From: a phage
Length of the DNA stretch: 64,000 bases
NCBI GenBank assembly: GCA_036253055.1
Contig: GCA_036253055.1_4124.1
Strand: one strand, 5' to 3'
The position numbers and the translations under genes were made by a program. The notes beneath the pieces were generated by a model. The model searched no databases. It saw only the letters and a program-made list of their open reading frames with translations, and was not told where the DNA came from. This document shows positions 42,498 through 42,567 of the stretch, in pieces. How positions within the stretch are numbered: the first letter of the stretch is position 1; each line of letters begins with the position of its first letter.

Positions 42498-42567
42498 TGC
42501 ACCCTATGGGTTAGTGACGTTCTCGTCTTGATGTAAGTATTATGCCAGTACTGGCATAATTTGTCAA
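42498..42567 (-). promoter_or_regulatory. Class-2 promoter (TTGACA..CAGTACTGGCATAAT) + conserved CACTAACCCAtAGGGTGCA element
   Basis: Near-identical unit on plus strand at 48508-48577. Confidence 0.5.

Follow-up and report, generated by a model that had tools for sequence, protein, structure and literature searches.

A predicted promoter-proximal RNA module repeated in the terminal repeats of Rak2-like jumbo phages

A 64,000-nucleotide (nt) stretch of phage DNA (GenBank assembly GCA_036253055.1, contig GCA_036253055.1_4124.1), hereafter the window, carries at 42498-42567 on the minus strand a sigma-70 promoter followed by a short GC-rich box, and the combination recurs elsewhere in the same DNA. 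Judged from comparative sequence analysis, the repeated box is the core of a previously undescribed folded RNA module of ~55 nt. The window is assigned by sequence to an Asteriusvirus, a 121Q/PBECO4-type (Rak2-like) jumbo myovirus of ~350 kb, because Escherichia phages Turkey3, 121Q, PBECO4 and their relatives match the 7 kb around the reported unit at 89-95% identity. The block holding the element is hyperplastic: it is filled with small open reading frames (ORFs) and its content differs between relatives. Early regions of jumbo phages are annotated nearly throughout as "hypothetical protein," and their non-coding content has been overlooked. A search of the 64-kb window for tRNA and tmRNA genes found none.

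The repeat family and its carrier promoters

When the 19-mer CACTAACCCACAGGGTGCA is searched in the window with up to three mismatches, it is found at 35355, 37276, 40143, 42498, and 44162 on the minus strand and at 48559 on the plus strand, where no match is expected (100 shuffles). A shorter core pattern adds 50934 (minus) and 52688 (plus). A covariance model based on 63 non-identical copies, taken from nine related loci and the window itself, detects 10 copies there, none outside 35.3-52.7 kb, and nothing credible in the other ~46 kb; seven of the matches are strong (E<1e-11), one is medium and two are degenerate. These are exactly the ten sites listed in the initial annotation, including the three at 52.45-52.72 kb that it calls degenerate, and they lie on both strands as described there (e.g., 42478-42535 on the minus and 48540-48597 on the plus strand). 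The copies and their attached features are as follows.

42539-42567, minus: promoter of the reported unit, TTGACA, 17-nt spacer with CAGTACTG, extended -10 TGgCATAAT
42478-42535, minus: reported RNA module, 55.6 bits, E 1.5e-12; predicted +1 at the A of CAT
48508-48536, plus: TTGACA-17-CATAAT promoter with TG, antisense to the minus-strand ORFs on either side
48540-48597, plus: stand-alone ("cargo-less") RNA module, 58.6 bits; predicted +1 at 48543
48617-48634, plus: GC-rich hairpin, bidirectional terminator-like, which would end the plus-strand RNA at ~95-105 nt
35335-35417, minus: copy A, TTGACT-17-TATTAT promoter (35389-35417) and short-form module (35335-35391)
37256-37343, minus: copy B, promoter (37315-37343) and module (37256-37311, 63 bits)
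40123-40205, minus: copy C, promoter (40177-40205) and short-form module (40123-40179)
44142-44229, minus: copy D, promoter (44201-44229) and module (44142-44197, 60.6 bits)
35397-35424, 37323-37350, 40185-40212, 44209-44236, minus: AAAGGGATTGACTCCGGTCAGTCCCTTT hairpins overlapping the -35 box
50913-51001, minus: 50.9 kb copy, TTGACC-17-GATAAT promoter (50973-51001) and module (50913-50969, 52.8 bits)
52418-52506, plus: degenerate copy, left member of a convergent pair, promoter (52418-52445) and module (52449-52506, E 0.014)
52510-52599, minus: degenerate copy, right member of the pair, module (52510-52567, E 0.0034) and promoter-like site (52570-52599)
52633-52721, plus: divergent copy, promoter-like TTGCTT-16-TATAAT (52633-52660) and module (52664-52721, 38.2 bits, E 1.3e-7)

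The units at 42.5 and 48.5 kb, which had been called near-identical, are similar to a lesser degree: 11 of 70 positions differ (~84% identity).

All of these copies fall into one part of the genome. In the Asteriusvirus fEgEco12, a direct terminal repeat of 20,993 bp has been confirmed experimentally (PMC13070987). Mapped onto fEgEco12, the terminal repeat of the window covers roughly 33-54.2 kb and contains 10/10 module copies; by the same homology, its outer boundary, the physical end of the genome, would lie at ~53.4-54.2 kb. The interval 52100-54250 is ~2 kb long and has no convincing ORFs; it is rich in CAGTACTG and filled with short direct repeats (TAGCCGTTTAGCCGTC..., ...GTCCAAAATTC...).

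Furthermore, every copy is attached to a promoter. Upstream of each of the ten window copies there is a -35/-10 pair, the core is always on the transcribed strand, and each copy begins 3-4 bases past the -10 box of a sigma-70 promoter. The same holds for 62 non-identical copies, which are all located downstream of TTGAC(A/T) promoters; the spacer is 17 nt in 50/62, an extended -10 TG is present in 42/62, and a perfect TATAAT is found in 4/62, the -10 hexamers being mainly TATTAT, CATAAT, and TATACT. In the window, most copies follow TTGACT-N17-TATTAT promoters. Among element-less promoter-like sites of the same DNA, other spacer/TG types dominate, and many have a 16-nt spacer without TG. Twelve promoters in 34500-53500 are perfect TTGACA-TATAAT (12/12) sites, eleven with a 16-nt and one with a 17-nt spacer, and none of them carries the element. 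By motif search of the window and by the covariance model, all copies are promoter-proximal, and the element is conserved across genera.

Two details of the initial annotation do not stand as they were given. The element had been coupled to a promoter class of the type TTGACA-N17-(cagtacTGg)CATAAT, which occurs four times in the window (46542-, 43361-, 42567-, and 48508+). Two members carry the element, while those at 46542 and 43361 lead directly into a ribosome-binding site and ATG without it. The element does go with a distinct promoter class, as the initial annotation supposed, but this class extends beyond the CATAAT type; most of its members have a 17-nt spacer and the extended -10. Nor is the distance between promoter and core fixed; it ranges from 19 to 28 nt, counted from the end of the -10 box, because the size of the first hairpin of the module varies.

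The promoters of this region have some further features. The minus strand of 34500-53500 shows an exceptional promoter density, with many TTGCAA-N16-TATAAT sites besides the perfect ones within 19 kb, and two or three tandem promoters before one small gene are common (e.g., 40205, 40075, and 39957, minus). AGTACT, a palindrome, is found 256 times in the 64 kb, where base composition predicts ~22, and most densely at 36-60 kb, while other A/T-rich 6-bp palindromes occur 7-57 times each in the window. It is often found as CAGTACTG in promoter spacers, just 5′ of -35 boxes (AAAAGTACTTGCAA) and in intergenic DNA, and looks like a binding site for some factor or a piece of promoter grammar.

A few early ORFs on the minus strand give hints of their function. 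One for a C4 zinc-finger protein (41985-42242; DksA/TraR-like according to the annotation of relatives) lies directly downstream of the reported unit, and one at 41565-41921 points to a GNAT acetyltransferase. An ORF at 37362-38003 has a weak protein-kinase-like match under the Pfam cutoff, and those at 38591-38995 and 51008-51301 are paralogues with a common N-terminal motif, FATRExARIxAR..G.TFKDMG. Apart from GNAT and this kinase-like match, Pfam scans of 20 early ORFs returned domains of unknown function, and no candidate for an RNA-binding protein or an antiterminator.

Anatomy and conservation of the module

Comparison of the 63 copies, together with a model-based alignment of 91 matches (86 distinct), gives a common order from 5′ to 3′: hairpin 1, a CUA linker, hairpin 2, and a single-stranded tail, GC-RGARR-U-GUAUCUAU. 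The 19-nt core described in the initial annotation is indeed conserved; it is merely the middle of a ~55-nt module, and conservation runs well past the 19-mer. At the 5′ side, a conserved CA(T) lies 5-7 nt past the -10 box. Its A is taken as the predicted +1 because of the usual 7-nt spacing, so that the RNA would start with pppA-U.

Hairpin 1 usually begins at +3 and has 3-5 bp of free sequence. There are 25 distinct stems, e.g., GAC/GTC, GCC/GGC, TGAG/CTCA, AGCA/TGCT, GGAG/CTCC, ACCAC/GTGGT, GACG/CGTC, and GGAA/TTCC, and the loops are purine-rich and 6-8 nt long (agataa, agaacaa, gcgaaa, gagaaa). Counted from the predicted +1, 1-2 unpaired nucleotides precede it in 44 of the 49 copies that bear the hairpin. 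In ~15 short-form copies, the purine-rich sequence is retained and the stem is small or absent. The two hairpins are 3-5 nt apart, joined by (C)UA. Hairpin 2, RCCC-AYA-GGGU, is almost invariant. In the tail, a G that never varies and a C that rarely does are followed by RGARR, by U in 79/86, and by a box, (GUA/CCG/CUG)UCUAU, according to the column counts of the model alignment. The reported module (42478-42535) is a typical example, with hairpin 1 GACG-agaa-CGTC, linker ACUA, hairpin 2 ACCC-AUA-GGGU, GC, and the tail. Hairpin 1 is UGAG-agauaa-CUCA in copy B and GCC-ggacacaa-GGC in the 50.9 kb copy, and the divergent copy (52664-52721) has AGUC-gagaaa-GACU as hairpin 1 and GCCC-ACC-GGGU as hairpin 2.

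Hairpin 2 does not have the form of an intrinsic terminator, having 4 bp followed by GC-RGARR and no U tract; the terminator-like sites found in some copies are separate features ~40 nt downstream. A leader peptide in the frame (A/G)TG-TAT-CTA, seen after the core in some copies, was rejected, as many copies have no start codon there. Two intrinsic terminators on the minus strand (48059-48083 and 47332-47357), of the form CACTAGCCCAC(n7-8)GTGGGCT-TTTTTT, have a 5′ arm, CACTAGCCCAC, that matches the first half of the element core. This likeness may reflect common ancestry or chance.

Conservation of the module is of the RNA type and strand-specific. In an alignment that had been fitted to the structure, it scores 0.344 for covariation, where shuffles give 0.147 ± 0.012 (0/500 reach the observed value), and all slid controls score lower. 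For hairpin 1, the score is 8.7 against 6.7 ± 0.25 in shuffles, each of its three pairs shows 26-33 double-sided changes, and the top mutual information is between its stem columns. The structure as named is paired in 86% of the cells of the model alignment, and hairpin 2 in 99.1%. The closing pair of hairpin 2 is A-U in 49 and G.U in 34 cases and A.C in none, and in two copies (ACCT...AGGT) an inner C-G pair is U-A instead. G.U without A.C indicates pairing on the transcribed strand, not a DNA palindrome. Many single-sequence folds had further suggested a long-range closing helix between the 5′ purine-rich part and the UAUCU tail. It was rejected: the native value of -5.26 is no better than the permuted one (-5.07 ± 0.24; 62/300 permutations as good), and mutual information over the alignment gives no pairs joining the 5′ part to the tail.

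The same data bear on a DNA-level explanation, in which the imperfect palindrome ACCC-N3-GGGT would be the operator of a dimeric phage or host protein, for instance a roadblock repressor by which these promoters are shut off. The core, a short inverted repeat, lies at +20 to +40, where such repressors act, and CCC and GGG never exchange strands, as would be the case if DNA were read sequence-specifically. Against this, the first position varies between A and G opposite an unchanging T (34 G.T, 0 A.C), both half-sites change at once with RNA pairing kept in the two copies with ACCT...AGGT, conservation extends asymmetrically to the 3′ side (GC and tail), and the adjoining hairpin 1 covaries as RNA. 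We therefore regard an operator as very improbable.

The module is confined to one group of phages. A 101-nt query matched 66 phage records, all Rak2-like, with Escherichia, Salmonella, Klebsiella, Cronobacter, Pectobacterium, Serratia, and Erwinia as hosts plus one "Xanthomonas" record. Strong model matches (91 + 58) are restricted to Rak2-like jumbo genomes, and the core is unchanged across Asteriusvirus, Alcyoneusvirus, Mimasvirus, and Eneladusvirus. IMG/VR was examined by two pattern scans and then with the covariance model. The first scan gave for the most part collagen-like coding repeats (ACT GGC CCA CAG GGT GC), which were discarded; strong matches were found only in jumbo contigs of ~350 kb, the remaining pattern matches being such coding repeats or noise. 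In each complete genome, all matches are within one block of 10-22 kb: phage CBB has all its pattern matches in the two terminal repeats of its annotation (1-22,456 and the counterpart on the right), and in GAP32, Serratia phage BF, fHe-Yen9-04, and one 366 kb contig they are in the first ~10-22 kb. There are 8-13 module copies per terminal repeat. Rfam 15 gave no gathering-level match in the 64-kb window; at E up to 10, its matches in 34.5-53.5 kb were terminator-driven Trp_leader matches and noise, none of them on the element. In the literature, the core sequence was not found in any relevant context; the papers on CBB, on fEgEco12, and on the promoter-early stem-loops (PeSLs) of T4-like phages cover promoters, terminal repeats, and cassettes, not the module (PMC13070987, PMC4122927, PMC2839356). 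What emerges is a conserved, covariation-supported RNA family with coordinates, a covariance model, ~90 members, and a terminal-repeat address.

Another source of such RNAs would be mimicry of a host immune RNA, the module acting as a decoy in the manner of a solitary CRISPR-repeat-like RNA anti-CRISPR or of a pseudo-antitoxin of a type III toxin-antitoxin system. RNA anti-CRISPRs are single, promoter-driven hairpin RNAs in phages, and the units described here are likewise single, promoter-driven, hairpin-containing, and phage-borne. By eye, one copy has a loose 18/27 likeness to the type I-F repeat, and GUGCAGC/UAGA strings recall ToxI. The stem register is unlike that of I-F repeats, the resemblance is in positions that vary among copies, and there is no tandem repeat organization. 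Moreover, 5,426 complete E. coli genomes and 72,556 PLSDB plasmids, which would include CRISPR arrays, contain no module match at E up to 10, and no closely similar CRISPR repeat of the host was found in this way. Such mimicry is largely refuted, and we give it hardly any weight. Look-alikes of CRISPR repeats, ToxI, CsrA sites, 16S rRNA, and RNase P were all set aside as short string likenesses that fall on variable positions or miss a key base; for instance, the module has GGG where a CsrA site needs GGA.

Genomic contexts and a possible role of the RNA

Promoter plus module is the sole invariant association, and downstream of it there may be a gene, a second promoter, a terminator, or a partner that faces it. 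Five copies, A-D and that at 50.9 kb, are located upstream of a second promoter, AGTAC-TTGCAA-N16-TATAAT, which serves the next gene as its proximal promoter. Four of them, A-D, are in addition parts of PeSL-like cassettes: the AAAGGGATTGACTCCGGTCAGTCCCTTT hairpin (12 bp) of the terminator of the preceding gene contains the -35 TTGACT of the next promoter, as in copy A, whose promoter is overlapped by the terminator hairpin 35397-35424. The copies at 42.5, 48.5, and 50.9 kb have no such hairpin. The gene-proximal second promoters have their own GC-rich hairpins at ~+8, e.g., GGGGAAAcggTTTCCCC and GACGGGGAAC...CCCGTT; those at 44040-44075, 37165-37190, 40000-40045, and 50790-50850 (minus) form a second conserved class of 5′ leader.

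In relatives, two copies are the direct 5′ untranslated region (UTR) of a gene (L006p2073 and L091p12616). There are also cargo-less units, which are antisense to all neighboring genes and have a GC-rich terminator hairpin ~40 nt on. Examples are 48508-48640 of the window, L005m9813 and L005m2745 of RaK2, L091m10021 of GAP32, L104p10873 of CBB, and those of several uncultured relatives. Small ORFs have been annotated over or beside the promoter-RNA-terminator unit (L154 99-263, Salmonella phage SD-6_S16; L157 34-162). Such ORFs, e.g., that of SD-6_S16, are probably spurious, and annotators should be cautious about small ORFs drawn across module units. A further arrangement is the tail-to-tail convergent pair, in which 57-nt modules face each other ~3 nt apart, as in CBB, GAP32, and others; in the window, the degenerate partners 52449-52506 (plus) and 52510-52567 (minus) are 3 nt apart. 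Fur-box-like palindromes are found between or just after convergent pairs in related phages (L003 ~2825-2850, L091 ~6095-6115, L014 ~1280-1300, L102 ~29860-29885), one of which, GAGAATGATAATCATTTAC, has 16/19 matches to GATAATGATAATCATTATC; the window has no comparably good Fur box (≥4 mismatches).

The cargo-less unit at 48.5 kb can be followed through eight Asteriusvirus genomes. Its promoter does not vary, nor does a 48-nt block that runs from hairpin 1 to CAGTACT, save at three positions, namely the third base of the hairpin 2 loop and the two that come next to GGGTGC on its 3′ side. The flanking sequence is variable, and compensatory changes have altered the terminator stem (GGGGATC/GATCCCC to GGGGAG/CTCCCC). 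A search of the window for trans targets of the conserved tail of this RNA gave a good score only to its own antisense.

Because the downstream context varies and a cargo-less unit is under evident purifying selection, we favor, tentatively and at slightly less than an even chance, the reading that the product is the RNA as such, recognized by a specific partner, with promoter and module as a self-contained unit. Given the selection on the cargo-less unit, a module that serves only the downstream message is hard to sustain. Strong host-type sigma-70 early promoters in the ~20 kb terminal repeat would make the ~55-nt structured RNA first. Where a terminator follows, an abundant short early RNA of ~95-110 nt would result, and where a gene follows, a longer transcript would carry the module at its 5′ end. 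Hairpin 1 may shield the 5′ end of the RNA, because so few nucleotides are left unpaired before it in 44/49 copies, and the invariant hairpin 2 with the tail may be the surface that the partner recognizes. This partner would most likely be a host or phage protein that is bound, titrated, or recruited early in infection.

Several points weigh against this reading. Single-sequence folding energies are mostly unremarkable (z -0.5 to -2.7). Hairpin 2 scarcely covaries, with two compensatory cases that are perhaps one event, so that its pairing as RNA rests chiefly on the A-U/G.U pattern. The copies are related by duplication, as paralogues and orthologues, and shuffle statistics therefore overstate their independence. 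Both the +1 site and the 3′ ends are predicted, and the Pfam scans of the early ORFs provided no candidate for the partner. About 50 of the 63 copies have no recognizable terminator within 200 nt, and a short RNA would there need processing or polymerase collision. Finally, instead of being selected genes, the antisense copies could be side products of a mobile promoter cassette that are tolerated.

The last point leads to a neutral explanation, according to which the module hitch-hikes in mobile, intergenic PeSL-like promoter/terminator cassettes that bring about gene shuffling; duplication and gene conversion among them would keep the copies similar, the transcribed part being without function. 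Copies A-D are indeed in composite cassettes of the PeSL kind (PMC4122927, PMC2839356), and the surrounding block of small ORFs is hyperplastic and variable between relatives. Within the cassettes, however, the flanks diverge while the core is fixed across several recognized genera, hairpin 1 changes its sequence and keeps its pairing (25 stems), and the core stands behind unrelated promoter backbones (TATTAT, CATAAT, TATACT, GATAAT). PeSLs as described have, moreover, no conserved transcribed element. We consider hitch-hiking improbable.

A pure 5′ stabilizer or processing leader would not need a partner either: hairpin 1 would guard early mRNAs against 5′-end-dependent decay by RppH and RNase E, and the AU-rich tail would be a processing site of RNase E or another enzyme. 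Stabilizing 5′ stem-loops, known from work on the ompA 5′UTR, tolerate at most ~2-4 unpaired 5′ nucleotides. The start of hairpin 1 1-2 nt past the predicted +1 fits this, as do the two genuine 5′UTR copies and the single-stranded, A/U-rich tail. Any stable hairpin would suffice for such a role, which leaves the near-invariant hairpin 2, the GC, and the tail unexplained; hairpin 1 is small or absent in ~15 short-form copies, and the selection on cargo-less units is not explained. Stabilization as the whole function is quite unlikely in our judgment.

The RNA-as-product reading can be carried further. Probably the first DNA to enter the cell is that of the terminal repeat, and 8-13 near-identical structured RNAs made from it could capture a host factor, either RNA polymerase or an elongation/termination factor (which would be a new put-like class, in a lytic phage) or a nuclease or defense protein. 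If true, the terminal repeat would carry a multi-copy, RNA-based device for host takeover or anti-defense without described counterpart; this extension is speculative, and we rate it as rather doubtful. In any case, the module sets apart some of the early transcription units of the Rak2-like terminal repeat. It thus offers a handle on the first minutes of giant-phage infection, i.e., on what is transcribed first and which factor reads hairpin 2, and on whether the RNA acts as a regulator by itself, tags transcripts for stability, or is a signal that modifies the polymerase.

Comparison with known systems

The closest layout is that of putL and putR of phage HK022, in which two adjacent stem-loops just 3′ of early sigma-70 promoters act at the RNA level in more than one copy. 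Here, too, two hairpins are adjacent, 3-5 nt apart, and start at ~+3. HK022 put RNA has ~70 nt of structure, while the module has ~40 nt, is present 8-13 times per terminal repeat, and is in some copies cargo-less or convergent. In lambdoid nut sites and rrn leaders, a small hairpin with a purine-rich loop likewise stands near a conserved linear or structured box in a promoter-proximal position; the invariant part of the module is the second hairpin, not boxA.

These systems suggest cis-acting control of elongation as a function of the module. As it emerges, the two-hairpin RNA would bind RNA polymerase, with or without a mediating factor, and cause put/nut-like antitermination or promoter-proximal pausing or loading; the many intrinsic terminators of the early region would be read through, while transcripts of element-less neighbors stop. 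The module is always in the first ~55 nt and its hairpin pair resembles the put layout, the loops of hairpin 1 are purine-rich like boxB, and the early region is packed with terminators, several of which overlap the next promoter. Tandem promoters with and without the module would then yield two transcript classes. Furthermore, the sequence around the tail, G-11 G-10 ... U-1 G+1, fits the consensus pause in about half of the copies. On the other side, conserved antisense units have a terminator immediately behind them and no cargo, and convergent pairs abut tail to tail. A boxA-like sequence (GCUCUUUA-like, up to one mismatch, -45 to +80) is present in 2/72 copies, where ~3.7 are expected (0.05 per 138-nt window), and the RfaH ops/JUMPStart sequence GGCGGTAG, searched on the non-template strand of the leader with up to one mismatch, in 1/72. 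A boxB has a 5-bp stem and a GNRA-like purine pentaloop; hairpin 1 has purine-rich loops of 6-8 nt on stems of 3-5 bp. With filters off, the module model found no put homology in HK022 22,000-33,500 (best 9.3 bits, E 4.4). Nor did 32-54.5 kb of the window contain a plausible gene-sized ORF for an N-like protein with an N-terminal arginine-rich motif; the maximum of five Arg per 18 amino acids is N-terminal only in two ORFs of ~39 amino acids that overlap larger ORFs, and is otherwise near the C-terminus of a 134-amino-acid ORF.

Elongation control is on balance unlikely. As for the initial annotation, its idea of a transcribed regulatory signal or protein-binding box agrees with a promoter-proximal element conserved across genera, with covariation of hairpin 1, and with the G.U/A.C asymmetry of hairpin 2; the antitermination site it proposed as one form of such a signal is met by negative results in the above comparison with boxA, ops, N, and put, and fits poorly with the terminators directly behind cargo-less units.

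The PeSLs of T4-like phages (PMC2839356, PMC4122927) are defined as stem-loop and promoter alone (PMC4122927). Like them, copies A-D, and only these, are in terminator-hairpin/sigma-70 promoter cassettes repeated between small early ORFs. The differences are that the stem-loop here overlaps the -35 box, that the conserved feature is downstream of +1, and that the module also stands behind promoters without a PeSL hairpin; the PeSL definition does not cover a transcribed module. With 5′ stabilizers of the ompA type, the module shares a hairpin within 1-2 nt of the predicted 5′ end. Such stabilizers are free in sequence, while the module keeps an invariant second hairpin and tail, and some units have no mRNA. 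From these comparisons, the module appears to belong to no Rfam family and to fall outside put, nut, ops, and PeSL in their defined sense.

Phage small RNAs with their own promoter and terminator are known in lambda oop, P4 CI, and P1 c4. The stand-alone units of the window, RaK2, GAP32, and CBB have the same organization of promoter, ~100 nt RNA, and terminator, and are antisense to their neighbors. They differ in belonging to a multi-copy family with a shared structured 5′ domain, where oop, CI, and c4 are single antisense regulators. As far as sequence comparison can place it, the module is thus a new RNA family within a general kind already known, the promoter-proximal leader RNAs and small RNAs of phages.

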